Sequence record: NC_019503.1
Source of the DNA: Escherichia phage ime09
Strand: one strand, 5' to 3'
Length of the DNA stretch: 64,000 bases
In this document: positions 2,430-55,505 of the stretch, one piece after another
Layout of the letters: each line of letters begins with the position of its first letter
How positions within the stretch are numbered: the first letter of the stretch is position 1
Made by a program: the position numbers and the translations under genes
Notes under the pieces: generated by a model
The model's input: only the letters and a program-made list of their open reading frames with translations
The model's database searches: none
What the model was told of the DNA's origin: nothing

Positions 2430-2459
2430 ATTATACCACATCCTTGTGGTAAAGTAAAC
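2430..2459 (-). promoter_or_regulatory. sigma70-type early promoter GTTTAC-N18-TATAAT
   Basis: reverse complement of attataccacatccttgtggtaaagtaaac; upstream of rIIA.1. Confidence 0.6.
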
Positions 2460-4279
2460 TACTGGCTCATCCATTCTTTACGAAGGTCAGCATTATCTCC
2501 CATGAGCATTTCAAAAAGCTCTTTCCAGTTCTCAGGAAGTTTAACAACATCATATACTGGGTTTTGAATCATCTCACGATATTCAGATTTTTCCAAAGAG
2601 CCAAGTCCCTTAATATAACGGATGCTATGTTTAGGTAGAGCATCTTTGGCACTCTCATATTCAGCGACTGTATAAAACCATTCTTGTTTTTTACCGACCT
2701 GAGCGATGATTACAGGAGTTTTGACAAAGCGAATTCTTCCTTGTTCAAACAGTTCTGGCCAATTACTAAAAAATCCGAGCAGAGAAGGATAAATGCTTCC
2801 TAGACCATCATGGTCAGCGTCAGTCATAATGGCAATATTATGATAATTTAAGTTTTCAGCCTTTTCACCAAGAACTAATCCAGTGATTGCGCAAATATCA
2901 AACAGTTCTTTATTTTTAAGCATATCAGCATATGACATACCCCAACTGTTGAGAACTTTACCACGTAATGGATAACCACCATGAAGTTCTTTATCACGAA
3001 CATCAATAAGATATCCGATAGCAGAATCGCCCTCAGTCAAGAAAAGAGTAGTATCAACATCTTTACCACAAAGATTCGCTTTAATGTGTTTATGAACCTT
3101 AGCTTTAGAAGCCTTTTTAGCTGCTTTAGTTTCTGCTGCTTTTTCTGCCGCCAATTTACGAGCCAAGGCAGCTTCAATAATTGGCATTAAAATTGCTTCA
3201 TTGTTTAAAATAGCACGTGAAATCTTTTTAGCATCAAGCTGAATATGACTACGAATTTCACCAAATGGAGAAGTCAAACGCTCTTTAGTCTGAGAATCAA
3301 ATCGCATGTTTTTCATATCACGAACGAACATAACGATAGTCAAACATTCTTTAACGCGTGCTTTAGTTACATCAATTTTGAACTTACGTTTGATTTGTGG
3401 AATAAGGTCTTCACAAATATCATCCATAACACAGTCAATGTGATGGCCACCATTCTTAGTATGAATGTTATTAACGTATGTTAATTGACGAAAACCATCA
3501 GGTGAACGACCGACTGCAATAGAACAGTTTTCTTGTTCTTGAACGATAGCATGCTCATCATATTGGCGTGCATATTTCTTAAAATTACCCTGAACCTTTT
3601 TACCATTAAAGGTAAATTGAATATCAGGATAAACTACTGCAAGTGTCTGGAGACGATCTAGTGTAATGTCAAGATAAACTTGAGATAGCTCATTAGTTTC
3701 AAATGACATAAAATCAGGAATGAAAGTAACACGTGTTCCTTTCCATTTTCCAGGAATATCTTCCCATGATTTATTTTCCATGCCATTTGAACAACGAACT
3801 ACAATATTATTTTGACCGTCGCCAGTTTCACCGACAAACATCACAGAAAAAATGTTAGTTAAACTAGAACCAACACCGTTCATACCGCCAGTGACGCGTT
3901 CTTTATCATCACCGAAGTTACCACCTGCTTTTGGAATAGTCCAAGCAGCAACAGGACCAGGAATTTCTTCACCAGTAGGTGTTTTAACCATCGCTTGCGG
4001 AATACCACGACCGTTATCTTCAACTGTTACTTGATTGTTTTTAATAGTAACATTAATTTTATTTGCGAATTTAAACTTAGTACGAATACCTTCATCTACT
4101 GAGTTATCGATAATTTCATCAATAAGCTTAACAAGACCAGGTACATACTGAACACTCTCCCATTTACCAAACAGAAAGCGCTCATGCATTTCATTAGCAG
4201 AAGAACCAATGTACATGCCGCTACGCTTTTTGATATGTTCAATATCGCTCAGAATTTTAATTTCATTCTTAATCATCAC
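2459..4279 (-). CDS. 39: DNA topoisomerase II large subunit gp39, unsplit (covers T4 39+60)
   Basis: 606 aa; GyrB-like GHKL ATPase and TOPRIM-type motifs; single continuous ORF. Confidence 0.9.
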   Translation of the reverse strand: MMIKNEIKILSDIEHIKKRSGMYIGSSANEMHERFLFGKWESVQYVPGLVKLIDEIIDNSVDEGIRTKFKFANKINVTIKNNQVTVEDNGRGIPQAMVKTPTGEEIPGPVAAWTIPKAGGNFGDDKERVTGGMNGVGSSLTNIFSVMFVGETGDGQNNIVVRCSNGMENKSWEDIPGKWKGTRVTFIPDFMSFETNELSQVYLDITLDRLQTLAVVYPDIQFTFNGKKVQGNFKKYARQYDEHAIVQEQENCSIAVGRSPDGFRQLTYVNNIHTKNGGHHIDCVMDDICEDLIPQIKRKFKIDVTKARVKECLTIVMFVRDMKNMRFDSQTKERLTSPFGEIRSHIQLDAKKISRAILNNEAILMPIIEAALARKLAAEKAAETKAAKKASKAKVHKHIKANLCGKDVDTTLFLTEGDSAIGYLIDVRDKELHGGYPLRGKVLNSWGMSYADMLKNKELFDICAITGLVLGEKAENLNYHNIAIMTDADHDGLGSIYPSLLGFFSNWPELFEQGRIRFVKTPVIIAQVGKKQEWFYTVAEYESAKDALPKHSIRYIKGLGSLEKSEYREMIQNPVYDVVKLPENWKELFEMLMGDNADLRKEWMSQ

Positions 4280-4303: not shown

Positions 4304-4328
4304 ATTATACTCCGGTAATCATAAAGCT
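4304..4328 (-). promoter_or_regulatory. possible middle promoter for gene 39 (imperfect MotA box AGCTTTA + TATAAT)
   Basis: 12-nt spacing; one mismatch in box. Confidence 0.3.
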
Positions 4329-4346
4329 AAAGGCCCGAAGGCCTTT
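4329..4346 (-). terminator. rho-independent terminator, UUCG tetraloop
   Basis: aaaggcccgaaggccttt; RNA forms GGCC-UUCG-GGCC then U-run. Confidence 0.6.
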
Positions 4347-4606
4347 TATTTAAAGCGGATAGTCGAATTCTTGAAGAATAGACCAGAACATACGGTTCCT
4401 TCTACTTTCTGCCCGGTAGGTCCAATAGCACGAAATCCAGTATGCTGGAAATCATTTTCAGAGCAACCGAACCAGTTATATCCAGTGATTTCAATATTAG
4501 TAAAACCGCTTGAAGACAAAATTTTGGTTGCATTATCAGCATCAGTACATCCTACTAAAGATACTGCTAATACTAATGCTGCGATAGAACGATTAATATA
4601 TTTCAT
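4346..4606 (-). CDS. predicted lipoprotein (signal peptide with lipobox LVGC)
   Basis: ORF 4346..4618; likely start at internal Met giving MKYINRSIAALVLAVSLVGC. Confidence 0.55.
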   Translation of the reverse strand: MKYINRSIAALVLAVSLVGCTDADNATKILSSSGFTNIEITGYNWFGCSENDFQHTGFRAIGPTGQKVEGTVCSGLFFKNSTIRFK

Positions 4607-5811: not shown

Positions 5812-6093
5812 TTAATTGAACAGTGGAGCGATGCGTTTCAGAAGAGTAGCAGCACCTTTGGCGAATTTTACATCATGAAAAACAGTTTCTTCTTCCGTTA
5901 CAACACGAACTTTAATGTTTTCACAATCCCAATTTTTACGAACAATCTTCAAAAGCTGCAGTAAATCTTTACATTCAGCAATATCGATAACACATCCACG
6001 AGAATCTTCCATTATCGCACGATAACCATAAGCCATACCATAATCGTTGAAAGATTGCTCGATGATAATTAAGTTTTCCATTTTATTCTCCAA
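5812..6093 (-). CDS. hypothetical protein (93 aa)
   Basis: co-directional ORF. Confidence 0.5.
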   Translation of the reverse strand: MENKMENLIIIEQSFNDYGMAYGYRAIMEDSRGCVIDIAECKDLLQLLKIVRKNWDCENIKVRVVTEEETVFHDVKFAKGAATLLKRIAPLFN

Positions 6094-6105
6094 GTTGTTT
6101 TCTGT

Positions 6106-6148
6106 ATCAGTAGTTGATATTGATATAGTACCATAATCAACTACTGAT
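6106..6148. repeat. perfect 13-bp inverted repeat, 17-bp loop
   Basis: atcagtagttgat ... atcaactactgat; loop attgatatagtaccata resembles -10 region of repeated promoter cassettes. Confidence 0.6.
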
Positions 6149-6188
6149 GTATATAGTTTTATGAAAAAATTTTAAACTTTATGCAAAT

Positions 6189-15534: not shown

Positions 15535-15565
15535 TATTATACCATACTCATTTTGGAAAGTAAAC
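15535..15565 (-). promoter_or_regulatory. early promoter GTTTAC-N19-TATAAT
   Basis: directly after soc terminator; upstream of 15303..15509. Confidence 0.5.
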
Positions 15566-15580
15566 CAGTAAAATGAAAAA

Positions 15581-15600
15581 AGGACTCCCGGAGGAGTCCT
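15581..15600 (-). terminator. rho-independent terminator after soc
   Basis: aggactcccggaggagtcct, 8-bp stem. Confidence 0.6.
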
Positions 15601-15605
15601 TGAAA

Positions 15606-16792: not shown

Positions 16793-16863
16793 TATTTTTC
16801 CTTTCAATTCATGGGTTAGTAGATTAATTATACAATAAATATATAAAGCAATAAGGAGGACAT

Positions 16864-18920: not shown

Positions 18921-18946
18921 GATAATCTCCTCAGTAGTTTATGTTT

Positions 18947-18976
18947 ATAGTATCTCAATTTTCAACAAAAGTAAAC
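18947..18976 (-). promoter_or_regulatory. early promoter GTTTAC-N18-TACTAT
   Basis: upstream of sp-like gene. Confidence 0.5.
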
Positions 18977-19023
18977 ACTAGTAGAAGCAAACAGACAAAT
19001 TGCAATAATTGGTGATTTCAGTT

Positions 19024-19218
19024 TCATTCTTCTCCTCCTTCATGTTGATGAACATATTCTTTTTCAAGTCTAGAGCACAAGTTTTCATATTCAACTAATA
19101 AAAATGAATCAAGTGCGTTATTTCTATGCTGACACCGTTCTTGTAAAGAATCCATCTCTGAACGTTGTTCTTGTGTTAATAATTGATAACCTGATACTTT
19201 AGGCATTTTGTTCTCCAT
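19024..19218 (-). CDS. hypothetical protein (64 aa)
   Basis: co-directional ORF. Confidence 0.45.
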   Translation of the reverse strand: MENKMPKVSGYQLLTQEQRSEMDSLQERCQHRNNALDSFLLVEYENLCSRLEKEYVHQHEGGEE

Positions 19219-19242
19219 TTACTCGTTTGTTTTGATAGGTCT

Positions 19243-19271
19243 ATAATAACATGTTTAAAACAAAAGTAAAC
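19243..19271 (-). promoter_or_regulatory. early promoter GTTTAC-N17-TATTAT
   Basis: upstream of 19024..19218. Confidence 0.5.
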
Positions 19272-19525
19272 TATTTTATTTCCTCAAGTTCGTTAATCAA
19301 TAAAAGTTCTCTGACGCTAAAAACAAAGAAAAATGTGTTCCCATCAACCAGAGCATGACCGCTAATAGAACACCCTCTGCGGAATTTAGAAACTTCACAA
19401 TCTAGAACTGTAAAGGGTTTTAATCCTATGACTTTAGCTGTGCGTCTATTCAGTTCACAACCGCTCGCGAATTTTTCCAAATCTTCTTCTGATTTAAACT
19501 GATATTCTCTATTAACTAGCATCAT
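19271..19525 (-). CDS. hypothetical protein (84 aa)
   Basis: co-directional ORF. Confidence 0.45.
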   Translation of the reverse strand: MMLVNREYQFKSEEDLEKFASGCELNRRTAKVIGLKPFTVLDCEVSKFRRGCSISGHALVDGNTFFFVFSVRELLLINELEEIK

Positions 19526-19556
19526 TTTCTTTTCTCCGCGATTAGCTGATAGAATT

Positions 19557-19586
19557 ACTATAACACAACTCTATCAGCTTGTAAAC
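19557..19586 (-). promoter_or_regulatory. early promoter GTTTACAAGCTGA-type
   Basis: GTTTAC-N18-TATAGT; upstream of 19271..19525. Confidence 0.5.
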
Positions 19587-19588
19587 TA

Positions 19589-19870
19589 CTATTTTACTAG
19601 CATCAATAACTGTTTCTCTAACTTGACGATTTTACGAAAGTATCTTTTACATTGGCGAATCTGTCGCTTCGTAGGGCGCACAGCAAACTTAATAAATTCC
19701 ACTCGACCAAATGGAGGACTTTCTTCTGCTGGAATATCTAACACCAATTCCCACGTATCTGCAACAAGTGCTTTGAATTGAGTATTTTTCCTGACATTAT
19801 ACGGAGTAGGTTTAAATAAAACAATATGCATATTATCCTCGGCAATCCACTTCACATACTTTCTTGTCAT
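19589..19870 (-). CDS. hypothetical protein (about 93 aa)
   Basis: track ORF 19589..19873 appears to use a non-ATG first codon; ATG one codon in. Confidence 0.45.
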   Translation of the reverse strand: MTRKYVKWIAEDNMHIVLFKPTPYNVRKNTQFKALVADTWELVLDIPAEESPPFGRVEFIKFAVRPTKRQIRQCKRYFRKIVKLEKQLLMLVK

Positions 19871-21873: not shown

Positions 21874-23029
21874 TTAACTGATCTAGGTCAGTTTCTAAAT
21901 CAGCTGCTGATTTACTTTTACTTTCTGGAGATTTAAATTTTTCAACCTTTGAGTTAATCAATTCATCAACTTCAGCTTCAACAATTTCATTACTATCAAT
22001 AGCACCTAACTGATAAGCACGTTTAATAGCATCTCGGAATGGTTGATGCTTAAATAAAGGACCCCAGAATGTAGTACAGTTGGTATCTTTTGCACGCCAA
22101 GATTTTTCTTCGCGAATCATCTCACCGGTTTCTTCGTCAAGAAATTCACGAGCATACCAGCCATTTTTAGGTTTTACCACAAATCCTAATTCAAGAGCCA
22201 TATCTAACAATCCAGAATAAGGATCGATACCACCGTCAAATTTAACATCAATAAAGAATTTACTTTTTTCTTTAACGGTACGAGATTTTTCTACATTTAG
22301 AACAAATTGATACCCCTGAAGATCAGAACCATCTTTAATCTGGCGCTTACCGATAATGAATACGGTATCAGCCGAATACATTACGCCTGTACCACCTGTC
22401 ATCACAGTTTTACTAAACATTTCAATTGTTTCAATTGTATGGTTAACCGCAACGCATGGAATGTTTTTAATACTAAAATAAGGAGTAACAATACGGAATA
22501 ATGACTTCAGTGATTTAGCACGAGTCATATCTGCCACAGATTTTTCATTCAAGGCATCTTCCGTTTCTTTCTTAGAAGCCATATTACCGATTGAGTCGAT
22601 GAATACAATAACTTTTTCGCCGCGCTCAATAGCTTCAAGCTGATTCACCATATCAATTTTCAGCTGTTCAACTGACTGGATTGGTGTATGAATTACACGT
22701 TCCGGGTCAACTCCCATGGATCGCAAATAAGCTGGAGTAATACCAAATTCGCTATCATAGAATAAACAAACCGCATCAGGATATTTGTTCAAATACGCCG
22801 CAACCATAGTCAAAGACATATTTGATTTAAAGTGTTTAGAAGGACCTGCAAAAATGGTTAAACCAGACTGCATACCACCGTCAATCGCGCCGGAAATAGC
22901 GATATTGAGCATTGGAATTTTTGTACGGATTACATCCTTTTCATTAAAGAATTTAGATGTAGTCAGTTCAGCAGTCATTTTAGAAGTGGAAGCTTTAATC
23001 AAACGGGATTTTAAATCTGCAATAGACAT
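21848..23029 (-). CDS. uvsX: UvsX recombinase (RecA-like)
   Basis: 393 aa; matches T4 UvsX. Confidence 0.93.
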   Translation of the reverse strand: MSIADLKSRLIKASTSKMTAELTTSKFFNEKDVIRTKIPMLNIAISGAIDGGMQSGLTIFAGPSKHFKSNMSLTMVAAYLNKYPDAVCLFYDSEFGITPAYLRSMGVDPERVIHTPIQSVEQLKIDMVNQLEAIERGEKVIVFIDSIGNMASKKETEDALNEKSVADMTRAKSLKSLFRIVTPYFSIKNIPCVAVNHTIETIEMFSKTVMTGGTGVMYSADTVFIIGKRQIKDGSDLQGYQFVLNVEKSRTVKEKSKFFIDVKFDGGIDPYSGLLDMALELGFVVKPKNGWYAREFLDEETGEMIREEKSWRAKDTNCTTFWGPLFKHQPFRDAIKRAYQLGAIDSNEIVEAEVDELINSKVEKFKSPESKSKSAADLETDLDQLSDMEEFNE

Positions 23030-23106
23030 TCATTTTTTCCATAGGCATCATTATATTTTCCTCACTGGTTAAAGATAGAGTAATTATAACACAATAAATT
23101 TAGGCA

Positions 23107-23955
23107 TTAATCGACTGCTATTGGATGAATAGCATTAAACTTATGAAACGCTTCTGATTTTTCTTTGCGCGAAACACACATGCGAAGAACCTTTAATGGC
23201 TCGTCTTCTTCACCCAACGATTTTCTCTTTTCAATATTCGATGTTTTCCAACGAGCTTGCTCTGGAAACTCTCTATTGATTTGCTCAAGAGCTCTATTAT
23301 GTTTTGAATTACTACGAATTGAACTACATCCGCCTGGAGCTTGTGCTTTTCCAGACACAACCAGATATTTGAACAAAGCCAAATGCGGATAACCTTGATT
23401 AATTAAATTGAGAAATGCATACATATCTTCGCATAAATCAATTTTTCCATACCCAATTTGTTCTGTAGTAAGTTTTCCGAGGTCATACCAAGTATTCGTG
23501 AATCCATATGAATTTTCACGATAATTACCCCAAGATGAAGTAATTTTAAAAATAGGTAGACGAGCATGACCGTGATAATACCCGCAATCCATGGCATCTT
23601 CAACGTATTGAATCAATTCATAGAACTGTTCACGAGTTAATTGATTAATTTTATCTACGCAGCGACGATCATCTTTCTTTCGCATTGAACTCATACGAAT
23701 AGTAGTATCATCATCAATCATCCAAATTCGTTGACCTGCATACATATCAGTAATTGCTTTACGAGTTCCAGCAATTCCATTAACATCATCAGGAATAGTT
23801 ATAATTTTAGCCCTAGACCCGTAAGCGTCATAATAAGCTTTTTCTTCATGTTCACGTACTACAATATGAGGTTCATAATCAGTCGGAAACATATCAAGGG
23901 CAGAAACTGCCCCTACGCGTTGATAGCTTGGAATTACGAATTGAATCATTTCCAC
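23107..23955 (-). CDS. GT-A fold (GT2-like) glycosyltransferase, candidate hmC-DNA sugar transferase
   Basis: 282 aa; N-terminal VIPSYQR and IWMIDDDTT (DxD); occupies the slot between uvsX and 42. Confidence 0.55.
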   Translation of the reverse strand: MEMIQFVIPSYQRVGAVSALDMFPTDYEPHIVVREHEEKAYYDAYGSRAKIITIPDDVNGIAGTRKAITDMYAGQRIWMIDDDTTIRMSSMRKKDDRRCVDKINQLTREQFYELIQYVEDAMDCGYYHGHARLPIFKITSSWGNYRENSYGFTNTWYDLGKLTTEQIGYGKIDLCEDMYAFLNLINQGYPHLALFKYLVVSGKAQAPGGCSSIRSNSKHNRALEQINREFPEQARWKTSNIEKRKSLGEEDEPLKVLRMCVSRKEKSEAFHKFNAIHPIAVD

Positions 23956-24686
23956 TCACCGTTATAATCTTTTTTCGCAATATGAGTTTCGCCAGTTTTC
24001 CACCAATGGTCAACCAAATAAAAATGACGGGAATACACGTGAAGGCTCCCGACGTTCCATATAATGGAACCTGCTTTATACTGACGAGTTGAATCACCTG
24101 CATTCAAATCAGATACTAATTTATCTAGTACATATTTTTGCCATGCATAATCATTACGGAATCCGAAGACCACGTCATTTGAACGCATGCTTACTACTGC
24201 ATTGATTTTCTTATCACGAATCAGGTACTGTACTGTATTCGTACACATGAAATCTGACATACCATCTTTATTGTAGTCAAACTGCATGGATGGACGAGTA
24301 TAAATCATGATACCACGCCGAGAATCAGGATTTTGACCAAGTTCAGCTAAACACATATCATACTGAGCATAGTTATCTTCTGACCAAATAGCCCAACCAT
24401 AATTCGAGTTAATTTCGCCTTTAGAAGATGCTACCTGTTGCCAAATCTTCGGTGTTTCACCTGGAATATCTTTAACAAACAGACTTTGAGACTTATACCA
24501 TTCAAGTTCACGCTGAATGTATTCATCATTAAGAGCGCCAAAAATAAAAGGTTCATCTGCTACAAATGATGCACCAATAATTTCAATAGTTTTAACCCCG
24601 GTTTTATCAATTACGAAATCTTTTTCCTTTAATGCAAGACCCAAATCAAGACGGATTTCTTCAACTGTCATATAATCGTTAATCAT
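23946..24686 (-). CDS. 42: dCMP hydroxymethylase gp42
   Basis: 246 aa, near-identical to remembered T4 gp42. Confidence 0.95.
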   Translation of the reverse strand: MINDYMTVEEIRLDLGLALKEKDFVIDKTGVKTIEIIGASFVADEPFIFGALNDEYIQRELEWYKSQSLFVKDIPGETPKIWQQVASSKGEINSNYGWAIWSEDNYAQYDMCLAELGQNPDSRRGIMIYTRPSMQFDYNKDGMSDFMCTNTVQYLIRDKKINAVVSMRSNDVVFGFRNDYAWQKYVLDKLVSDLNAGDSTRQYKAGSIIWNVGSLHVYSRHFYLVDHWWKTGETHIAKKDYNGEWK

Positions 24687-25099: not shown

Positions 25100-25480
25100 T
25101 CACTTAGTCAAATTTTTTACACATGAATTATAAGAATTCACTACATACTCCATCGGAGCATTTTTACCTGTGCGCCATTGGTAATTATTAGCCCAATTAG
25201 CCCAAAGTTCGGCGCAGTAGTTTTCAATTTTTTCTTCGCGTGTAATTACATCCGAATTACGATATGCTTGAGCAGATTCATCTGGACGAATAGCTTCGTC
25301 AAAATTCGCCTGCATTTGTTCTACTGTCTGTTTTGGAGCTTCTTTATAACACTTAACATTAGGATTATAAAATTTGCTTGAACAGTTTACAATTTTTCCT
25401 ACATCAGATTGATTTACTACCGGTCCTTGAGCTACACAACCAGTAAGACCCAATGCAATAACCAAAATAGCGATTTTCAT
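25100..25480 (-). CDS. predicted lipoprotein (lipobox LTGC)
   Basis: track ORF 25100..25669; start moved to internal Met MKIAILVIALGLTGC downstream of promoter 25515..25543. Confidence 0.55.
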   Translation of the reverse strand: MKIAILVIALGLTGCVAQGPVVNQSDVGKIVNCSSKFYNPNVKCYKEAPKQTVEQMQANFDEAIRPDESAQAYRNSDVITREEKIENYCAELWANWANNYQWRTGKNAPMEYVVNSYNSCVKNLTK

Positions 25481-25487
25481 TTCATTC

Positions 25488-25570
25488 TCCAAATCCGCAT
25501 CAGTTGATAGTTGTATAGTACCACGGAAGAACAGAGATGTAAACAGTTTTGTGAAAAATTTTTTAATGAA
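25488..25570. repeat. repeated intergenic promoter cassette, copy 1
   Basis: tccaaatccgcatcagttgatagttgtatagtacca...gtaaacagttttgtgaaaaatttttt; near-identical at 51844..51920, partial at 50408..50462. Confidence 0.6.
25515..25543 (-). promoter_or_regulatory. early promoter GTTTAC-N17-TACTAT inside repeated cassette
   Basis: upstream of lipoprotein gene. Confidence 0.55.
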
Positions 25571-25631
25571 TTTAAAGGACCTAGAATCATCTATTTTTCC
25601 TAAGTATAGATTTATATTACTTGCATGAAAA

Positions 25632-25649
25632 AGGGACCCGGAGGTCCCT
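25632..25649 (-). terminator. rho-independent terminator after gene 43
   Basis: agggacccggaggtccct. Confidence 0.55.
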
Positions 25650-25661: not shown

Positions 25662-28358
25662 TCAGCCAAACAGGAAGTCTAACGAAGCTTTTTCCTCATA
25701 GTCCATACCTGCCGATTCACACATGCCCGCAAGTGGTTTAACAAACGATTTTTGGAACAAAGTTGAGTAGTCAATCCAAGACAGTACATCAGAACGAATT
25801 TCTTTTGGAAGTTCTGTGCCAGACGGCCAAGCAATGCACTTGTCACCAAATGGATTTCCTTCACGTAATGGAAGAACCATTACCTTATTTCCATCCAAAA
25901 TTGGAGCTACACCTAAACCACTAACAGCTCGACGATAAGTTAACACACCACGAATATGGAACGGGCATTTAAATCCTGGCCAACCTTTATCGTCATATTT
26001 CGCTATATCGTTCGCGGTTTTTACTTCAGCAATAACTTTATAGTCAAGTTGACGATATTCTTTCTCAAAGTTCTTGTAGTATTCTTGGACAGACTCTTCG
26101 CCTTCCTGAAGAATACGACGAATACTTTCTTCGAGAGCTTCTTGTACTGCTTTTGGTGTTGAACTCTGCTGAGTTTCCATACCCATGATTTTTAGATGCG
26201 GTTCAGCAAATCGCTTATCTTCCATATCATAAACGTTCAGAGCATAACGCTTTTTCGCTTTCCAAAATCCACCAACACCCTTTGAACCAAGCGGAGGGCA
26301 AGAAATAGCTTCACGGTCCATATGCATCAGATGCTCGCGGTTATTCATATAATCACATAACTCACGATATGCAACATCAATCATAGGTTCCATCTTTTTC
26401 TTACCAAACTGATTCATGAATTCAACTAAATCATTTTGTTCTTTAAAGCGATCAAGACCTACTTTTTCAATAACTTTATCTACACAAACATATACCGAAT
26501 CAGTATCACCTGCTGCGATGAAATCTTCACCATTAGTTCCACATACTTTATTCAGATATTCATTAATTTTACGAGCAATCCACTGAATACCAACTTGACC
26601 AAAAATTGTGATAGCAGTAGCATTTCGCAAATCATAGTAACGGAAATGAATATTACCAAGAGCACCATAAAGACTGTTGATAAGAATTTTACGGTTCAGC
26701 TGATTTGTGTTAGCAAGTGTAGCTGCTTTTTCACATTCTTCGATCAGACTATTAAGAACAGATTCAGTGTAATTCGATAATTCGTTTAAGAAATCATCAT
26801 TGAACTTAACATATCGTTCAACTTCCGGTTTAGTTGAACAAGACCCTGCACCTTTCATAATAATCTTTTTAATAGCTTCGGCATTCATTTCTTCAGCGAA
26901 CATTTTCTTTTTCCAGTCTTTACGCTGGAAAAATACTTTAGCGATTTCCTTTGGAATGATACCTTCTTGATGCTTATCATACATCCATCCATTCGGAGAA
27001 CAAGAATATTCATCACTTGGCTTAGGAGCTGTTCCTGCGATATATTCATGAATTGGATGAACTTTAAACTGTCCACGAATAGTCTCAGGACTAATGTTAA
27101 CCTGACGAATAATGCTAGGATACAGAGACGTCAAGTCAAAACTCATAATGTATCGACGAGCAATCGGTTTAGGTTCAAACACAAATGCACCTGGAAAACT
27201 CTGTTTAACGTGCGAACCTTGTTGAGGAATAACCTTATGTTCACCTTTCAATGAGTTAAAAATAATAGCATCCCAAGTTTTAATAGGACTCATTACACCA
27301 GAAAAAGGCATTTTAGCGTAATAGGACATACTTAAAACTAGATCAATAAACCCACGAATTTTATCAATTGCTTGAACTGATTCTACGTCAATGATGTTAT
27401 AACTAATGTATCGTTGATGATTAGTCTCACGAAGTTTATTAATAGGACCATCGTACGGCAATTTACCTTTTTTGGTTTCATGTTGAGCAACTGATTCCAA
27501 AGAGAACGATGGCAAATTAGTAAATGCGAACTTCTTGTATAAATCTAAATAATCAAGAATAGATACGCCATCAATAGAATAAATTTCTTTGCTACCGTAC
27601 ATATTTTGAATTAGTTTAGATTTTACTCGACCGATTGGAGAGAAACGTTTCATACTGCGTTCGCCGAGAACCATTTTAACACGGTTCATGATATACGGAA
27701 CGTCAAATCCCTCAATATTCCAACCGGTAAAAATAGCAGGTCGTTTCTGTTCCCAGAGATTAATATATTCCATGAGCATATCACGCTCATTATCAAATGG
27801 CATATAAATTACTCGGTCAAGAATTTCTTGAGGAACTTCATCACCACCTTCACAGTCAAGCTTAGCAGCTAACTTTGCATCCCATTTTGATACTGAACCG
27901 TACATTGAATTCAACAAATCAAAGACGTAAAAACGGTCGTCAATTGAATCATAATGAGTGATAGCATCAATTTCATATTCTGCTTTCATTGGGTCAGGAA
28001 ATTTATCACCAGTAACCTCAATGTCACAGTTAGCTACACGAACAAATTTTCGGTCATAAACAATTTCTGAACCATATGTATCACTGATATAAGCGAGTTT
28101 AAAATCGTTCATACCGAGAGCTTCGAGACCGATGTCTTCCATCCGCTTCATCCAGTCTCGTGCATCTTTCATTGATGGAAATTTTTGAGGAGCGCAATTT
28201 TTACCATAAATGTCTTTGTATTTTGACTCTTCCTTACAATGCCTAAACATAGTCGGAAGATATTCTACTTCACGAGTACGTTCCTTTCCGTTTTCATCAA
28301 TATAGCGCTCAACAATGTTATTTCCGACTGTTTCGATAGAGATATAAAATTCTTTCAT
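25662..28358 (-). CDS. 43: DNA polymerase gp43 (family B)
   Basis: 898 aa; exo and pol motifs (DTDS); matches T4 gp43. Confidence 0.97.
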   Translation of the reverse strand: MKEFYISIETVGNNIVERYIDENGKERTREVEYLPTMFRHCKEESKYKDIYGKNCAPQKFPSMKDARDWMKRMEDIGLEALGMNDFKLAYISDTYGSEIVYDRKFVRVANCDIEVTGDKFPDPMKAEYEIDAITHYDSIDDRFYVFDLLNSMYGSVSKWDAKLAAKLDCEGGDEVPQEILDRVIYMPFDNERDMLMEYINLWEQKRPAIFTGWNIEGFDVPYIMNRVKMVLGERSMKRFSPIGRVKSKLIQNMYGSKEIYSIDGVSILDYLDLYKKFAFTNLPSFSLESVAQHETKKGKLPYDGPINKLRETNHQRYISYNIIDVESVQAIDKIRGFIDLVLSMSYYAKMPFSGVMSPIKTWDAIIFNSLKGEHKVIPQQGSHVKQSFPGAFVFEPKPIARRYIMSFDLTSLYPSIIRQVNISPETIRGQFKVHPIHEYIAGTAPKPSDEYSCSPNGWMYDKHQEGIIPKEIAKVFFQRKDWKKKMFAEEMNAEAIKKIIMKGAGSCSTKPEVERYVKFNDDFLNELSNYTESVLNSLIEECEKAATLANTNQLNRKILINSLYGALGNIHFRYYDLRNATAITIFGQVGIQWIARKINEYLNKVCGTNGEDFIAAGDTDSVYVCVDKVIEKVGLDRFKEQNDLVEFMNQFGKKKMEPMIDVAYRELCDYMNNREHLMHMDREAISCPPLGSKGVGGFWKAKKRYALNVYDMEDKRFAEPHLKIMGMETQQSSTPKAVQEALEESIRRILQEGEESVQEYYKNFEKEYRQLDYKVIAEVKTANDIAKYDDKGWPGFKCPFHIRGVLTYRRAVSGLGVAPILDGNKVMVLPLREGNPFGDKCIAWPSGTELPKEIRSDVLSWIDYSTLFQKSFVKPLAGMCESAGMDYEEKASLDFLFG

Positions 28359-28416
28359 AGATATTCCTTAGTTTATAGCCCGAGTTATTAGGCTCTTGAT
28401 ATATTATACTCCAAAT

Positions 28417-28434
28417 AAGGGGCCGAAGCCCCTT
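28417..28434 (-). terminator. rho-independent terminator, UUCG tetraloop
   Basis: aaggggccgaagcccctt just upstream of gene 43 leader. Confidence 0.55.
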
Positions 28435-28436
28435 GC

Positions 28437-28658
28437 TTAAATTAATACCATTTGTCGGTGAAAAATTGTCAATCCATCTGCATTAATTGACTTAACCACT
28501 GCGGTAAAGTGTTTTTGTTCTGGGTGAACTAATTTTTGAAATTCTACCTGAAATTTTAGTTGGAGGTTTTCTGGTAAATCAAAAAGTGTTTCTGTTGCAG
28601 AAAGATTATATTTTTCTTTAAGAGACGCCATGTATTCTTGCGGAGTTATAGCAGTCAT
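28437..28658 (-). CDS. hypothetical protein (73 aa)
   Basis: track ORF 28437..28700 trimmed to internal Met just after regA stop; terminator follows. Confidence 0.4.
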   Translation of the reverse strand: MTAITPQEYMASLKEKYNLSATETLFDLPENLQLKFQVEFQKLVHPEQKHFTAVVKSINADGLTIFHRQMVLI

Positions 28659-30569: not shown

Positions 30570-30586
30570 GTTTTAGTGTAAATTAT

Positions 30587-30604
30587 AAAGGGCCGAAGCC
30601 CTTT
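30587..30604 (-). terminator. rho-independent terminator/attenuator after gene 45
   Basis: aaagggccgaagcccttt. Confidence 0.55.
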
Positions 30605-30605
30605 A

Positions 30606-31292
30606 TTAAAAGTCGTGGGTAGAATCAGCTTCAAGAGCTACTACATAATTCGCATGTTCACCTTCAAATTTAGCAGCGCCTTGTTTACCTTTTGCCCAGA
30701 GAAGAAGTTTATAATTTCCTGGTTGCATTTTCATATTTGCCATATTGATAATGAAATTAAATGTATTTTCACCATCATAATCACCAAGAGTCAAAGAATA
30801 TTTAACACGGGTCAAAGCAGAATCTTCTACTTTGTTAAAACCGTTAATTACAATTTTACCTTCTTTTACTGTGATAGCAATTGTATCAATCTGCAGACCG
30901 CGAGATACACGCAACAGCTGTTGAAGGTCTTCAGCTTTAATTTCAGTAACAACAGATGCTACCGGGAATGGAATTGGTTTATTAGGAGCAACTACTGTAC
31001 TCGGATCAGCTGCTGGCCAAAAAATTGTTGAACGGGCATCAGCAATTTTAATATTACCATCTTCTGACTGGGAAATTTCTGCATCATCATTAACGAGAGA
31101 CAGAATACCAAGAAAACCGTTCAAATCGTAAATCGCTACATCAAAATCAATAGTGTCAGAAATATTTGCTTCTGCATAAGTTGTACCATTAACCGCGCGA
31201 GTCATAATAAATTGACCGGATTTAAGCATAATACCAGAGTTAATAGTAGCGAAATTTTTGAGCAGAGCAGTAGTATCTTTAGACAGTTTCAT
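30606..31292 (-). CDS. 45: sliding clamp gp45
   Basis: 228 aa; matches T4 gp45. Confidence 0.93.
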   Translation of the reverse strand: MKLSKDTTALLKNFATINSGIMLKSGQFIMTRAVNGTTYAEANISDTIDFDVAIYDLNGFLGILSLVNDDAEISQSEDGNIKIADARSTIFWPAADPSTVVAPNKPIPFPVASVVTEIKAEDLQQLLRVSRGLQIDTIAITVKEGKIVINGFNKVEDSALTRVKYSLTLGDYDGENTFNFIINMANMKMQPGNYKLLLWAKGKQGAAKFEGEHANYVVALEADSTHDF

Positions 31293-35136: not shown

Positions 35137-35296
35137 ATGTCAAGAACCGCCATTGAAATGCAAAATAAAATTATTGAAATAAATCCATCTGGAGTACTAA
35201 AGAACCCAATCCAACATGCTCTGGTGAACAAATAAAACGCTAGAAAAAGTATCACATATCCAAGAAATATCATTATATCAAACTCCGTATAAAGCT

Positions 35297-35314
35297 AAAG
35301 GGCCGAAGCCCTTT
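35297..35314 (-). terminator. rho-independent terminator after agt
   Basis: aaagggccgaagcccttt, identical stem-loop to 30587..30604. Confidence 0.55.
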
Positions 35315-36515
35315 ATTTTGTAATAATGTCAAACTGTTCTTTAAAGCAGAAGCTTGAATCTTGATGCTGATACAAAAATTCATAAGCTTTTTCGCGTTCA
35401 CGGTCATAAAGAGCTCGGTCAGATGACAGTTCTTTAATACGTTCAAATGTTGATTCCATGTCATTTTCATCAAACCAAACGATACCACTATCATGAGAAA
35501 TTAACGGAGTATTATCAACACGGAATTTTAAATTTTCGCCAGTAGATTTCCAAAATACTGGAATTGTTCCGCACGCACCAAGCTCGAGATGAGTATATTC
35601 TAAAGAACGTTGTAGATATTTTTTATCCAACTTACTCAACTGATAACCAAATCCGGATTTACTCATGCGTTCAAGCATTTCGCTATTTACATAACGGTCG
35701 AGAATTTGCGTTGGCAAATTAGGAGCAATTTTAATTTGGTCTACTTGATGAAGACGATAATACTCGTATGGAATTCCTTTTTCTTTAATAGGAATGAACG
35801 CTGGAGAACGTTCCAGACCTTCCATAATAGTACTTAGTCCTGCAGGTTTAAGATGTTTTTCGTGAAAATCAAACATCTGATAAAAACCTTTCCATGTAGT
35901 CGTACGACCAATCCAGCGGTTGACATTCATGTTAATTTCAGAAACATCTTTCCAGTAGGTTGATCGAACCTTCGCAATATCCATAGGAGGCTGAAAGTTG
36001 TATACGGTCGGTGCTTCTTCAATATCATCAAACAGAGAAACTGTTTCTGGATACCATTCTTTCATCAGAACTTTATTAAAATCACCATTATCAGAATGAC
36101 TAAAAATAACATCAGCTCGACGAACAGTTTCTTCTAATCCCAAATTTCGGCGCAAAGAAAGAGAAGAATGGTCATGTTGATAAACTACAACACGAACTGA
36201 AGGTTTAATGTTATCAATAATTTTTTTATAGTTATTAATAGTGTCTTCTTCTACTGAAGTAGCAGGAACTGAATTGATAATTAGAATATCACAATCATTT
36301 ACCAGCTTAAGTGTTTTATCGTATTCTTTTGCCAATAAAACCGGAATTGAAAATGATTTATAATCATGCGCGCAATTACGAGTAAATGATTTATCTTTAG
36401 CATAAACCAAAGTTACTTCATGACCATTTTTAATAAACCAATCACGCTGCTCGAGAGAAAATTTAGTTACGCCGCAACCTTCAAGACCTCGAGCCATAAA
36501 AATACATACTTTCAT
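35313..36515 (-). CDS. agt: DNA alpha-glucosyltransferase
   Basis: 400 aa, MKVCIFMARGLEGCGVTKF... near-identical to remembered T4 AGT. Confidence 0.93.
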   Translation of the reverse strand: MKVCIFMARGLEGCGVTKFSLEQRDWFIKNGHEVTLVYAKDKSFTRNCAHDYKSFSIPVLLAKEYDKTLKLVNDCDILIINSVPATSVEEDTINNYKKIIDNIKPSVRVVVYQHDHSSLSLRRNLGLEETVRRADVIFSHSDNGDFNKVLMKEWYPETVSLFDDIEEAPTVYNFQPPMDIAKVRSTYWKDVSEINMNVNRWIGRTTTWKGFYQMFDFHEKHLKPAGLSTIMEGLERSPAFIPIKEKGIPYEYYRLHQVDQIKIAPNLPTQILDRYVNSEMLERMSKSGFGYQLSKLDKKYLQRSLEYTHLELGACGTIPVFWKSTGENLKFRVDNTPLISHDSGIVWFDENDMESTFERIKELSSDRALYDREREKAYEFLYQHQDSSFCFKEQFDIITK

Positions 36516-36539
36516 TTAATATCCTCATTGTTTTGGTTT

Positions 36540-38898: not shown

Positions 38899-38936
38899 AC
38901 ATTATCCTCAATTGCATTAAAATTTTATTATCCAAA

Positions 38937-38953
38937 AAGGGCCGAAGCCCTTA
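38937..38953 (-). terminator. rho-independent terminator
   Basis: aaagggccgaagccctt. Confidence 0.55.
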
Positions 38954-39151
38954 GCTAAACTGTTTGGCACCCTTCCAGCCTTCGTACATCATTGCGGCTG
39001 ATATTAATATTGCTCCTGCGCATTTTGAATATTTGTGATTCCAAAACCAGTTTAGAAAAACTTCGTCATCAATACCTTGGGCTATCATATTTTCAAAGAA
39101 CTGACGACGAGCTTCAGCAATTCGTTGCGATAATTTAGATTCAGGATTCAT
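38951..39151 (-). CDS. hypothetical protein (66 aa)
   Basis: co-directional ORF. Confidence 0.45.
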   Translation of the reverse strand: MNPESKLSQRIAEARRQFFENMIAQGIDDEVFLNWFWNHKYSKCAGAILISAAMMYEGWKGAKQFS

Positions 39152-40549: not shown

Positions 40550-41020
40550 TTAATCATGTTTCCACACCCCATCGGTATTTGACCAAAGTCGCTGATTATC
40601 TGATCCTCGCCACAGCTTTTTGGTCGGAAGATTTTTCTCATACTTCCCATCAATAATAACATCAACATATTTAAGCATTTCTAGTTGTTTAATATCTTCA
40701 AACTTATATCCTGTCCACAACCAAATGCTTTTATTGGGATAAAGATTTTTTACTGTTTGAACAATGCAATGAACAACATCTCTATTATCAGGATAAAGAG
40801 GGTCTCCTCCGGTTATAGTTAATCCTTCTATATAATCATTATTCAAACATTCAATTAATTGTTCTAGTGTTTCACCAGTGAATGGAACGCCATTTCTAGC
40901 GTTCCATGTTGATTTATTATAACACCCTTCGCATTTATGCAAACAGCCTGTGACGAAAAGAACGACCCTGCATCCAGGGCCATTCACAAAATCGCAAGGA
41001 TAAAATCTATCATAATTCAT
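40550..41020 (-). CDS. nrdG: anaerobic RNR activating enzyme NrdG (radical SAM)
   Basis: 156 aa; CLHKCEGC cluster motif. Confidence 0.9.
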   Translation of the reverse strand: MNYDRFYPCDFVNGPGCRVVLFVTGCLHKCEGCYNKSTWNARNGVPFTGETLEQLIECLNNDYIEGLTITGGDPLYPDNRDVVHCIVQTVKNLYPNKSIWLWTGYKFEDIKQLEMLKYVDVIIDGKYEKNLPTKKLWRGSDNQRLWSNTDGVWKHD

Positions 41021-42834
41021 TGGTGTTTAACCCTATGCATGATTTCTTTATTTTTGCCGAGATTAAATCCGCGTTCATTCGGATTTCCCAAATAACCACA
41101 AGTTCTTCTTATTGTGTTCATCTTTTTAGGATCAGTTTCTCCACAAATAGAACAAACAAACCCGTTTTCAGTAGGAGTCATTTCATGGGTACTTCCACAC
41201 GTAAAACATTTATCTACTGGCATGTTAACACCAAAATAATCTAAATGTTGTGCAGCATAATCCCATACAGCCTCAAGACCCTTTAGGTTATTTTTCATAT
41301 CAGGAAGTTCAACATAAGAAATGTGACCACCTGTCGCAATGAAATGATATGGTGCTTCGCGAGAAATCTTTTCAAACGGAGTGATATTTTCTTCTACTGA
41401 AACATGGAAACTATTAGTGTACCAGCCTTTATCAGTAACATCCTTTACACTTCCATATTTTTCAGTATCAAGTTTACAGAAGCGATAACAAAGGTTTTCA
41501 GCAGGAGTAGAATACAAGCTAAAAGCAAAACCGGTTCTTTCAGTCCACTGCTTAAGACGAGCATTCATTTTAGTTAAAATTTCCTGTCCAATATCACGAC
41601 CAACAAGAATATTCAATTCGTGAATACCAATGTATCCTAGGGACACTGAACTTCTACCGTTTTTAAATAACTCAATTATGTCATCATCAGGTTTAAGACG
41701 AACCCCGAATGCACCTTCTTGGTAAAGAATAGGAGCAACAGTCGCTTTAACTCCTTTTAAGGAACTGATTCTACACATCAAAGCTTCAAAACACAAATCC
41801 ATTCGTTCGTTGAACAATTCGGCAAATTTCTGTTCATTGAATTGTGTTCCAATATAAGAATCTAACGCAATGCGAGGAAGATTCAGTGTTACAACGCCAA
41901 GATTATTACGTCCATCAAGAATTTCATTACCAGTCGAATCTTTCCATACGCTCAAGAAACTACGGCAACCCATTGGAGAAACAGGAATAGATGAACCGGT
42001 GATAGCTTTATTGTTCTTAGCTGAAATAATATCAGGATACATTCTTTTGCTTGCACACTCTAGAGCAAGCTGCTTAATATCATAGTTCGGATCGTCTTTA
42101 TAAAGATTAACGCCTTCTTCAACGAACATAACAAGCTTAGGGAAAATAGGAGTTATCCCATCGCGACCAAGACCTTTAATGCGATTTTTCAGAATTGCTT
42201 TCTGAATCATTCGTTCAGTCCAGTCAGTTCCCGTACCAAATGTAATTGTTACAAAAGGCGTTTGTCCATTTGAACTAAAGAGAGTATTTACTTCATATTC
42301 ATAAGCTTGGAATGCATCATATACATCTTTTTCTGTTTTAGATTGGGCATAATTCAACGCATCAGCGATTTGCCATTTTTCTGCATCCTCAATATGTTTT
42401 GCATAGGTGCGTTTAACATAAGGAGAAAGTACTTTATCTACATTCGCAAAAGTCGTTCCGCCATATTGATGAGAAGCAACCTGTGCAGTAATTTGTGCCA
42501 TAATTGCAGTAGCAACGCCGATTGATTTAGGAGTTTCAATCTGTGCATTACCAAGCTTAAATCCGTTTTCAAGCATTCCTTTTAAATCTACTAAACAGCA
42601 ATTAGTAAATGGAAGAGCAGGGGAATAATCAATATCATGGAAATGGATAATTCCGCTTTCATGCGCTTTCATAATAAAAGACGGGACCATATTTTTGGCA
42701 ATGTGTTTAGACACAATACCAGCCATAAGGTCCCGTTGAGTTGGAAAAACACGAGAATCTTTATTGGCATTCTCGTTTAAAAGGTCTTTATTAGTTTTAT
42801 GAATCAATCCTTCAATTTCTTTTTCAATTGTCAT
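41017..42834 (-). CDS. nrdD: anaerobic ribonucleoside-triphosphate reductase NrdD, uninterrupted
   Basis: 605 aa; C-terminal glycyl radical motif RTCGYLG and zinc ribbon; no intron. Confidence 0.93.
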   Translation of the reverse strand: MTIEKEIEGLIHKTNKDLLNENANKDSRVFPTQRDLMAGIVSKHIAKNMVPSFIMKAHESGIIHFHDIDYSPALPFTNCCLVDLKGMLENGFKLGNAQIETPKSIGVATAIMAQITAQVASHQYGGTTFANVDKVLSPYVKRTYAKHIEDAEKWQIADALNYAQSKTEKDVYDAFQAYEYEVNTLFSSNGQTPFVTITFGTGTDWTERMIQKAILKNRIKGLGRDGITPIFPKLVMFVEEGVNLYKDDPNYDIKQLALECASKRMYPDIISAKNNKAITGSSIPVSPMGCRSFLSVWKDSTGNEILDGRNNLGVVTLNLPRIALDSYIGTQFNEQKFAELFNERMDLCFEALMCRISSLKGVKATVAPILYQEGAFGVRLKPDDDIIELFKNGRSSVSLGYIGIHELNILVGRDIGQEILTKMNARLKQWTERTGFAFSLYSTPAENLCYRFCKLDTEKYGSVKDVTDKGWYTNSFHVSVEENITPFEKISREAPYHFIATGGHISYVELPDMKNNLKGLEAVWDYAAQHLDYFGVNMPVDKCFTCGSTHEMTPTENGFVCSICGETDPKKMNTIRRTCGYLGNPNERGFNLGKNKEIMHRVKHQ

Positions 42835-47448: not shown

Positions 47449-47478
47449 ATTATACCACATCCTTGTGGCAAAGTAAAC
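47449..47478 (-). promoter_or_regulatory. early promoter, near-identical 30-mer to the one at 2430..2459
   Basis: attataccacatccttgtggcaaagtaaac; upstream of protein B. Confidence 0.55.
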
Positions 47479-50403: not shown

Positions 50404-50407
50404 TTTC

Positions 50408-50462
50408 TGTTCCTCCGTAGTTGATAGTTGTATAGTACCACAGAGGAACAGTCTTGTAAACC
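50408..50462. repeat. repeated intergenic promoter cassette, partial copy 3
   Basis: shares gttgatagttgtatagtacca ... gtaaac core. Confidence 0.5.
50432..50461 (-). promoter_or_regulatory. early promoter GTTTAC-N18-TACTAT inside repeated cassette
   Basis: upstream of 49876..50403. Confidence 0.55.
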
Positions 50463-50867: not shown

Positions 50868-51848
50868 TTATTTCAGAAGAGTAACCTCAGCGATTTCTTC
50901 CCAACCGTTTTTATCGGTCATAATAAAGTCAGCAAGATAAAGAGCAGTACGCAGTGAAACATTGCGTAAACGATTAACATTAACTTTCATCCATGATAAT
51001 GCTTTATAAGTTTCTTCATCAGAAAGACCGCGCTTTTGCATCATGTCAGTTGAAAGAATAACATCTTCAACCCTGACCATAATTTCTTCATTAGTGTGAA
51101 CACCCAAATCCAAATAAACCGAGCGGGACACTAATGCTTGTAAATGTGGAGCAAGTTTAGTACCACGGTCTAATTCGCGGTCAATGTCAACGTTTGTGAT
51201 AAAAACAATCGTTCCTTTAAATTCAAACTCACGGTCAATGCCTTTTTCTTCTAAGTAAGAAGATGCAGTGCTCCAGCAGACTTTACGGGTCTCTCCGGTG
51301 TCCAGAGCGGCTTTTAGAAGATTAAGAATGTCCATATCAGAGAAAACATCCACATCATCAATCAAAAGGACAGAATTCTCTTCACGATTATTCCAAAGCT
51401 GCTCATAAAGACCAATACCAGAGATTTTACCATTAATGCTTTTATATTCAATGTATCCAATATCATTTGCTTTATTTAAAGCTTTATCTAAAGAATACGT
51501 TTTACCAATACCTGCTGCGCCAGAGATAATCAATGAACGAATATTTCCGTTAATAATACCATTCGTCATCATTCCCATAACATTAAATCTTTTATTAATG
51601 CGGGTTTTCATATCTTCATACGATTCTTTAACTTCTTCAACTTTTACACCATCATATGAAATATCTGATTTGTAAACCCAAACACCGCGACGTTTACCGT
51701 CAATTTCAACAAAAACTTTACCATCTCCTTGTGCATCTACCGGAGCATTATCTGGGAACCATTCGCCTAAGAGCTCAAAAGTTCCAGAGATTTCTTTACC
51801 GAAGTAGATACCCTTATTGATAGTTACAGTTTTCATTTTATTCTCCAA
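50868..51848 (-). CDS. AAA+ ATPase (326 aa)
   Basis: Walker A GAAGIGKT, Walker B LLIDDVD; about 100-aa N-terminal extra domain. Confidence 0.6.
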   Translation of the reverse strand: MENKMKTVTINKGIYFGKEISGTFELLGEWFPDNAPVDAQGDGKVFVEIDGKRRGVWVYKSDISYDGVKVEEVKESYEDMKTRINKRFNVMGMMTNGIINGNIRSLIISGAAGIGKTYSLDKALNKANDIGYIEYKSINGKISGIGLYEQLWNNREENSVLLIDDVDVFSDMDILNLLKAALDTGETRKVCWSTASSYLEEKGIDREFEFKGTIVFITNVDIDRELDRGTKLAPHLQALVSRSVYLDLGVHTNEEIMVRVEDVILSTDMMQKRGLSDEETYKALSWMKVNVNRLRNVSLRTALYLADFIMTDKNGWEEIAEVTLLK

Positions 51849-51920
51849 ATCCGTATCAGTTGATAGTTGTATAGTACCATAAAGCTTTATGCTTGTAAAC
51901 TGTTTTGTGAAAATTTTTTG
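51844..51920. repeat. repeated intergenic promoter cassette, copy 2
   Basis: same flanking blocks as 25488..25570 with different spacer. Confidence 0.6.
51871..51900 (-). promoter_or_regulatory. early promoter GTTTAC-N18-TACTAT inside repeated cassette
   Basis: upstream of AAA+ ATPase gene. Confidence 0.55.
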
Positions 51921-51930
51921 AAATAAAAAA

Positions 51931-51952
51931 AAAGGGAGCCCGAAGGCTCCCT
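51931..51952 (-). terminator. rho-independent terminator after NTase-fold gene
   Basis: aaagggagcccgaaggctccct. Confidence 0.55.
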
Positions 51953-53425: not shown

Positions 53426-53427
53426 AA

Positions 53428-55490: not shown

Positions 55491-55505
55491 CGGTAAAATG
55501 AAAAA

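Follow-up and report, generated by a model that had tools for sequence, protein, structure and literature searches.

Overall, we find that the repeated intergenic blocks of the window, i.e., the whole stretch of DNA analysed here (the first 64 kb of the genome of a Tequatrovirus, a T4-like phage), are most readily explained as T4-type immediate-early promoter cassettes of the promoter-early stem-loop (PeSL) kind, which would act as crossover points for promoter + ORF units; we put the probability of this reading at about 0.85. A sequence-only reading had described a block of ~75 bp recurring at 25488..25570 and 51844..51920, with a partial copy at 50408..50462 and an early promoter in each, and had likened the blocks to PeSLs. 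All three copies are present where it placed them, each holds the predicted UP, -35, 18 nt, TGn and -10 layout, and the sequence-level PeSL features are found in copies 1, 2 and 4 and in the partial copy. The block proved longer than described, its homology running ~14 nt further into the start codon and second codon, and a fourth copy, at 6074-6185, had been overlooked.

In the scheme that we propose, a cassette would include a stable hairpin, which either ends the upstream gene as an intrinsic terminator of the C(UUCG)G type or lies within or around the promoter. Its other parts would be an AT-rich UP element (aaaattttcacaaaac), a putative host sigma70 promoter (GTTTAC and TACTAT or TATAAT, separated by 18 nt that end in TGn), and a short, presumably unstructured leader followed by a GGAG Shine-Dalgarno sequence and ATG. 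Such a cassette would fire when the DNA enters the cell and drive a small accessory gene: in T4, host sigma70 polymerase transcribes immediate-early from UP/-35/TGn/-10 promoters (PMC2988021), and the Shine-Dalgarno sequence is later cut by RegB/S1 (PMC3014915). The likeness between copies may have two causes. The first is purifying selection, constraining the UP element and the extended -10 as well as the initial transcribed region and the RegB/Shine-Dalgarno site; the second is common descent with modular exchange, in which UP/-35, spacer, -10 and leader modules would be combined differently in each copy. T4 recombination is very active, and since it meets 20-150 bp of homology at many intergenic sites, the copies would act as crossover points. 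Promoter + ORF units could then be inserted, deleted or swapped at cassettes by homologous crossover, possibly via excised circles, with the neighbouring genes left intact.

Genomic context and layout of the cassettes

The window is ~98% identical to Tequatrovirus genomes, the Nami/EcNP1 group being the nearest, and its gene order is collinear with T4 from position 1 (rIIA) onward. Nearly all of its genes lie on the minus strand, which we therefore took as the sense strand for the cassettes (Table 1). Relative to T4, the window is without the homing-endonuclease genes and the nrdD intron (mobA/gene 60 insert, segF, segA, mobB, mobC, I-TevII, mobD); dam is also missing, and topoisomerase gene 39/60 is one unbroken ORF (2459-4276). 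The product of imm.1 carries an apparent lipoprotein-type signal sequence, as read from its N-terminus.

On the sense strand, copies 1 and 2 run aaaaa-ttttcacaaaacN, GTTTAC, an 18-nt spacer, tggTACTAT, acaactatcaactgatRcggatttGGAGaatRaa and ATGaaaa. The predicted promoter boxes, GTTTAC-18-TACTAT or TATAAT with TGn ahead of the -10, keep this spacing in all copies, and a GGAG Shine-Dalgarno sequence stands 6-10 nt before the ATG in every one. Copies 1, 2 and 4 also carry the AT-rich region expected of a PeSL, aaaaa(a)ttttcacaaaac.

Table 1. Positions of the cassettes, their parts and neighbouring features in the window.
Feature	Position	Strand	Remarks
Cassette copy 1, before imm.1	25474..25570	-	
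Copy 1 UP element	about 25545-25570	-	
Copy 1 -35 GTTTAC	25539-25544	-	
Copy 1 spacer, 18 nt	25521-25538	-	
Copy 1 -10 TACTAT	25515-25520	-	
Copy 1 leader	25481-25514	-	GGAGAATGAAA at 25480-25490
Copy 1 ATG (imm.1)	25478-25480	-	
Cassette copy 2, nrdC.11/nrdC.10 gap	51830..51926	-	
Copy 2 -35	51895-51900	-	
Copy 2 spacer	51877-51894	-	
Copy 2 -10	51871-51876	-	
Copy 2 GGAGAATAAAA	51836-51846	-	perfect match to RegB/S1 strong-site consensus
Copy 2 ATG (nrdC.10)	51834-51836	-	
Partial copy, before nrdC.8	50404..50461	-	-35 50456-50461; -10 50432-50437
Fourth copy, before ORF 5812-6081	6074..6185	-	-10 TACTAT 6125-6130; GGAGAATAAAA 6081-6091
30-mer, core early promoter of rIIA.1	2430..2459	-	GTTTAC-tttaCCACAaggaTGTGG-TATAAT
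30-mer twin, core early promoter between nrdC.5 and nrdC.4	47449..47478	-	
Tandem promoter + small-ORF units	18946..19608	-	-35 at 18976, 19271, 19586; ORFs 19024-19206, 19271-19525
Terminator + promoter cassette	15535..15605	-	GGACUCC-UCCG-GGAGUCC, U run, cattttacNGTTTACtttcca; paralogous to 55460-55530
Hairpins with the -10 box in the loop (-35 positions)	7168, 8270, 19586, 20074, 50461, 54678, 59310, 62416	-	
Gene 43 terminator hairpin	25627..25649	-	GGGACC-UCCG-GGUCCC + U run; -13.9 kcal/mol
nrdC.11 intrinsic terminator	51924..51952	-	GGGAGCC-UUCG-GGCUCCC + U9; -16.2 kcal/mol
Gene 43 (DNA polymerase)	25662-28358	-	upstream neighbour of copy 1
imm.1	25100-25480	-	DUF5481 protein (Pfam match); downstream of copy 1
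nrdC.11 (RlaP-type nucleotidyltransferase)	51954-52967	-	upstream of copy 2
nrdC.10 (AAA/STAND-like protein)	50868-51836	-	downstream of copy 2
nrdC.8	49876-50403	-	behind partial copy, which sits between nrdC.9 and nrdC.8
T4 elements missing in window	2807-2859, 16828-16832, 23024-23964, 36506-36531, 41000-41020, 42296-42299, 52975-53931		window vs T4

Copies 1 and 2 are alike well beyond the promoter boxes

Aligned as 98-nt blocks on the minus strand, copies 1 and 2 matched at 80/98 positions (82%). They shared 49/51 nt from the 'tgg' ahead of the -10 box through ATGAAAA and ~24/25 nt over the UP element and -35 (allowing a 1-nt indel), while the 18-nt spacers in between were unrelated, so that the pair fits neither a "hexamers only" resemblance nor a uniformly diverged recent duplication. 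Among the 19 early promoters of the window, the two copies were the top outlier pair: downstream of the -10 they were identical at 38/40 positions (other pairs: mean 13.9, sd 4.4, next best 25), and upstream at 20/25 without gaps (other pairs: mean 9.3, sd 3.1). Their similarity therefore extends far past what the hexamers or the general T4 early-promoter consensus would give. The 20-mer TACTATACAACTATCAACTG, which covers the -10 box and the initial transcribed region, had 3 matches in the window at ≤3 mismatches and 0 in 100 shuffles.

Such likeness could in principle reflect pure functional convergence, i.e., a shared extended UP/-35/TGn/-10 consensus with no descent and no role in recombination, and T4 early promoters do have a consensus beyond the hexamers (PMC2988021). 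Set against this, the leader identity of copies 1 and 2 stands 5.5 sd above that of other pairs, and no RNA-polymerase contact accounts for the leader; we regard convergence as improbable.

Partial, fourth and core-promoter copies

The partial copy has tggTACTATACAACTATCAACT in common with copies 1 and 2 and matches them in the -35 box and, without mismatch, over 25 nt around the -10 (about 66% overall); its UP region is taken up by the end of the nrdC.9 coding sequence. The fourth copy, with a degenerate -35-like box (ATATAC, 6149-6154), matches copy 1 or 2 at 77/109 positions (71%). It forms a 112-bp island, 98% identical to T4, Nami and CT01, with non-homologous or deleted DNA on both sides, and also resembles the T4 e.8 promoter region (T4 70616-70718, 85%). 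The ORF behind it (5812-6081, minus strand) is intact in the window, at 89 aa. In T4, Nami and CT01, this ORF has a 200-bp internal deletion (window 5873-6074), where the aligned blocks overlap by 8 nt, possibly as microhomology; an 11-codon remnant is left in T4, whose record has no annotation for it. The breakpoint at 6074 was rejected as cassette-linked, since it belongs to this deletion inside the ORF.

The 30-mer that had been reported separately at 2430..2459 and 47449..47478 recurs as described, at 29/30 identity (0 expected), and extends over exactly the -35, spacer and -10. The two spacers agree at 17/18 positions, whereas other early-promoter pairs average 7.4 (sd 2.5). The flanks are unrelated, the upstream AT-rich region there being coding sequence of the upstream gene, and conservation between the two spans 30 nt only, not ~100 bp. 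The pair thus has the PeSL promoter and a small hairpin (CCACA-agga-TGTGG, within the spacer) without extended flank conservation. The earlier statement that the flanks of the blocks are conserved beyond the hexamers stands for copies 1 and 2, on both sides; the 30-mer pair is a core promoter only. The rIIA.1 and nrdC.4 promoters have a spacer motif, CCACAAGGA(T/C)(G/C)GTGG, in common, and a variant of it occurs in the cassette heading the MKFKFYY ORF in other T4-like contigs; spacers therefore also appear to be exchangeable modules.

Reuse of one cassette before unrelated genes

The UP / GTTTAC / TACTATACAACTATCAAC cassette heads imm.1, nrdC.10 and the MKTTLIEV, MITAEQIK and MKFKFYY ORFs, as well as the MKIVYGCL ORF at the imm.1 position, and the same cassette stands before e.8 in T4, RB69 (genus Mosigvirus) and phiE142 (genus Carettavirus). 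In T4-like phages, it is thus joined to at least seven unrelated ORFs, with homology stopping at or near the ATG, and this coupling of one leader to many genes is a further point against convergence. Over 56-66 nt, the e.8 cassettes of RB69 (locus L024, 1501-1566) and phiE142 (locus L023, 1501-1556) match copy 1 at 95-98% identity, even though the genes on either side have diverged too far to be aligned by megablast; this implies either very strong constraint or recent transfer of the cassette. The imm.1 cassette is itself a mosaic, with its spacer in common with e.8 and its leader with nrdC.10; in T4, the spacer of the imm.1 copy is close to that of nrdC.8.

The window and T4, Nami and CT01 all show the same differences between copies, such as aatGaaATG vs aatAaaATG and the single A vs G of the 30-mer pair. 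Because these copy-specific substitutions are stable, there is no sign of ongoing homogenisation or gene conversion, and we rejected concerted evolution between copies. Stability across genomes is also what selection predicts, a point in favour of convergence. Selection alone could maintain much of the identity between copies, and selection on promoter and leader function probably does so.

A candidate RegB site in the leader

The strong RegB/S1 cleavage consensus is GG*AGRAYARAA (PMC3014915). The GGAGAATAAAA of copies 2 and 4 matches it exactly, and copy 1 at 10/11 positions; the window has exact matches at 6081, 19206 and 51836, where chance would give 0.36, the leader of ORF 19024-19206 being the remaining carrier. 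As a fit to the strong consensus, GGAGAATAAAA would allow a cleavage that later inactivates the mRNA. The leaders of copies 1 and 2 are moreover predicted to be unstructured (z about 0 to +1). These features could suggest that the shared leader is mainly post-transcriptional, i.e., a RegB/S1 site combined with an unstructured translation enhancer, with recombination incidental. However, the site accounts for only ~11-14 nt of the 50-nt identical stretch, and both the UP/-35 identity and the breakpoints described below are left unexplained. As a full account, this is very improbable; as a function of the leader, it complements the explanation by exchangeable promoter cassettes and does not exclude it.

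Indel breakpoints in relatives

Mapping the cassettes against indel boundaries in relatives, the check suggested along with the sequence-only reading, placed breakpoints inside cassettes at nrdC.11/nrdC.10, 43/imm.1 and the 18976-19608 tandem; these, together with those at 6185 and 62395, lie next to variable ORFs. At the nrdC.11/nrdC.10 junction, five relatives displayed four insertion patterns, with every breakpoint inside the cassette. In BW-1, modA-like ORFs are enclosed by two terminator + UP + -35 units, which make up a 36-nt direct repeat; Sso113 and Nami have a DUF4031 ORF and a small ORF inserted, with the crossover in ttggRgaataaaATGaaaact; JLBYU22 has one inserted ORF, with the breakpoint within the leader; and CT01 has three. 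Across a spread sample (60/523 matching records), the junction showed ~10 span lengths (no insertion, +32, -52, about +260, +324, +427, +478, +622, +739 and +1100 bp); a second spread sample (60/743 matching records) added a span of about +694 bp, in records annotating a homing endonuclease.

At the 43/imm.1 junction, ~60% of sampled genomes carried an extra 240-268 bp. In CT01, the last part of the insert is a 151-bp direct repeat whose start lies within the promoter spacer, and recombination between the repeats would yield the T4/window arrangement. Since the repeat takes in 90 nt of imm.1 coding sequence, the event is not purely cassette-mediated. The common insertion allele has 117 nt unique to it (locus L002 of CT01, 2036-2152), which read ...NGKVSIKIDDNLHMNTNGTLGVQL in frame and are flanked by a truncated imm.1 signal-peptide ORF on one side and by the second cassette copy on the other. 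The 18976-19608 tandem of the window has three promoter + ORF units, of which Nami is without one (crossover in GTTTACttttgtt) and T4 without two, with breakpoints at or ≤~22 nt from the -35 boxes.

Cassette footprints, 3.8% of the window, contained 10/61 breakpoints relative to T4, Nami and CT01 (p=9e-5). With gene-boundary zones as the null, the count was 10/48 vs 12% expected (p=0.06), a modest enrichment, and we therefore make no claim that cassettes are the main indel route. No breakpoint relative to T4, Nami or CT01 was seen in 12 of the 20 cassettes examined, and most window-vs-T4 indels are not cassette-linked: they reflect presence or absence of T4 mobA/B/C/D, segA/F and the I-TevII intron, others being promoterless gene-junction insertions and microhomology deletions such as 5873-6074. 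The proposed role in gene shuffling is thus borne out by breakpoints at several junctions and tempered by the modest excess over gene junctions; as judged from these alignments, cassettes do provide a real route of gene shuffling without dominating it. Weak enrichment over gene boundaries would suit convergence, whereas inserted ORFs flanked by direct repeats of cassette sequence would not, and convergence is already disfavoured.

The cassettes had also been said to bracket accessory genes. Variable ORFs do adjoin them, yet the pair nrdC.9-nrdC.10, bracketed by copy 2 and the partial copy, was present in every genome of a spread sample (60/743 matching records), and a deletion between the bracketing cassettes at 51900 and 50461 was accordingly rejected.

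A dedicated integron-like site- or structure-specific recombination system that recognises the hairpins and moves the cassettes is scarcely credible: hairpins are a constant cassette component, and Arbiol et al. raised the possibility, excised circles having been detected in RB49 and phi1 (PMC2839356), but the hairpin sequences vary between cassettes and a single junction shows at least three breakpoint positions (UP/-35, mid-leader, SD-ATG), with no fixed crossover site. This variation points to general homologous recombination and away from a site-specific enzyme. The window cassettes thus do not have the fixed crossover and cognate recombinase of an integron-like system, and in the annotated records compared here, no integrase or recombinase besides homing endonucleases is listed in this region.

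Terminators and promoter hairpins

The nrdC.11 terminator directly abuts the UP element of copy 2 and forms the stem-loop part of that cassette. The gene 43 terminator lies ~60 nt upstream of the copy 1 UP element, not adjacent to it, and is a borderline case of a PeSL stem-loop. Five near-identical GC-rich hairpins that follow genes (4327-4353, 28415-28441, 30585-30611, 35295-35321 and 38934-38960; sense-strand GGGGC-UUCG-GCCCC) are terminators or stabilisers with a C(UUCG)G tetraloop. Loops of this kind, C(UUCG)G or C(UCCG)G, are shared by the terminators of the cassettes, at 51933-51952, 55506-55523, 15570-15605 and 25632-25649. No Rfam family reached its gathering score anywhere in the window.

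In the partial copy, pairing between the spacer and the Shine-Dalgarno region of that copy gives a 15-bp hairpin whose loop holds the -10 box (z=-7.4). Hairpins of this design are found at many early promoters of the window and its relatives, in a fixed register, with arms that differ between cassettes yet stay complementary and with many G.U pairs on the sense strand. Five window promoters have uninterrupted 15-bp stems, compared to about 6 bp in shuffled controls. When 18 distinct sequences from at least seven sequence families were aligned in register, both sides changed in 12/14 pairs; this set was picked for pairing, which biases the paired percentage and leaves the covariation and the A-U / G.U / G-C series unaffected. 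Orthologues show A-U / G.U / G-C series at single pairs, e.g., at 54678 when the window is compared with T4 and Nami. IMG/VR pattern scans for further orthologues gave only 4-9 loci each.

Stem-loops overlapping the -10 box already form a subclass of PeSLs, read as attenuators (Arbiol 2010, PMC2839356). At nrdC.8, regB, dexA and denV, the 3' arm contains the Shine-Dalgarno sequence, while the predicted transcription start comes only after the 5' arm. The hairpins straddling the -10 might then serve as translational gates, with read-through RNA poorly translated and RegB-protected and own-promoter transcripts alone translated, a doubtful idea. If true, expression would be confined to the immediate-early minutes, mirroring the late-promoter gating of T4 e, soc, 49 and I-TevI. 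Where the hairpin covers the Shine-Dalgarno sequence, predicted accessibility differed 1.4- to 2.7-fold between read-through and own-promoter RNA, with an imperfect automated choice of Shine-Dalgarno; by the same calculation, with the same imperfect choice, the 19586 / 20074 / 54678 family had no such difference.

Comparison with known systems

Taken together, an independent genome confirms the portable regulatory cassettes of T4-type phages, reused before unrelated accessory genes and coinciding with indel hotspots. These cassettes help explain the gain and loss of small host-adaptation genes in hyperplastic regions. For annotation, they account for short high-identity intergenic repeats, and extra ORFs are to be expected in relatives, above all at nrdC.11/nrdC.10 and 43/imm.1.

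PeSLs comprise a stem-loop, an AT-rich region, a sigma70-like early promoter, a Shine-Dalgarno sequence and an ATG, and are intergenic, beside variable small genes (PMC2839356; PMC4122927). They were first described for RB49 and phi1 (Arbiol 2010, PMC2839356) and extended by Comeau 2014 (PMC4122927) to the T4/PST pair with the consensus TTTACW-N17-TAYWAT. Given these reports from 2010 and 2014, the phenomenon is already known, and the window cassettes are an ordinary though neat example of this published class, with no principle beyond Arbiol 2010 and Comeau 2014.

Like the PeSLs of RB49 and phi1 (PMC2839356), the window cassettes are intergenic, stand before small ORFs and are associated with indels or replacements between close relatives, and an ORF may lie between two cassettes in one phage where the other has a single cassette. 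They differ in the -35 (GTTTAC here, TTGACA there) and in their stems, which have C(UUCG)G or C(UCCG)G tetraloops in place of polyG...polyC; mini-circles were detected for RB49/phi1 PeSLs, whereas ours are known as sequence. The T4/PST PeSLs (PMC4122927) belong to the same genus, and their consensus fits GTTTAC-18-TACTAT/TATAAT; they lie near indels in hyperplastic regions at ~43-51 kb of PST, the same range as the nrdC block of the window (44.6-53 kb). The nrdC.11/nrdC.10 allele series is from our own sample, and the likeness to the T4/PST PeSLs is by class, not copy by copy.

Control by a promoter embedded in a hairpin is known for T4 e, soc, 49 and I-TevI (PMC3014915), and there, as for nrdC.8, regB, dexA and denV, only read-through RNA could form the hairpin. 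The embedded promoter is early in the window cassettes and late in the T4 genes; copies 1 and 2 are without such a hairpin, and elsewhere the predicted effect is modest. With the T4 'uber' early promoters (Hinton 2010, PMC2988021), the cassettes share UP, -35, TGn and -10. However, copies 1 and 2 are far more alike than that class requires, above all in the transcribed leader.

A moron carries its own promoter and terminator, whereas an integron cassette is promoterless and expressed from the integron Pc promoter. Like lambdoid morons and integron cassettes, the cassettes of the window are self-contained units that would add an expressed accessory gene between existing genes. They differ in that they have no attC site and, in the records compared, no annotated integrase beside them; their orientation follows the surrounding transcription, and the regulatory sequence itself would provide the homology for exchange.
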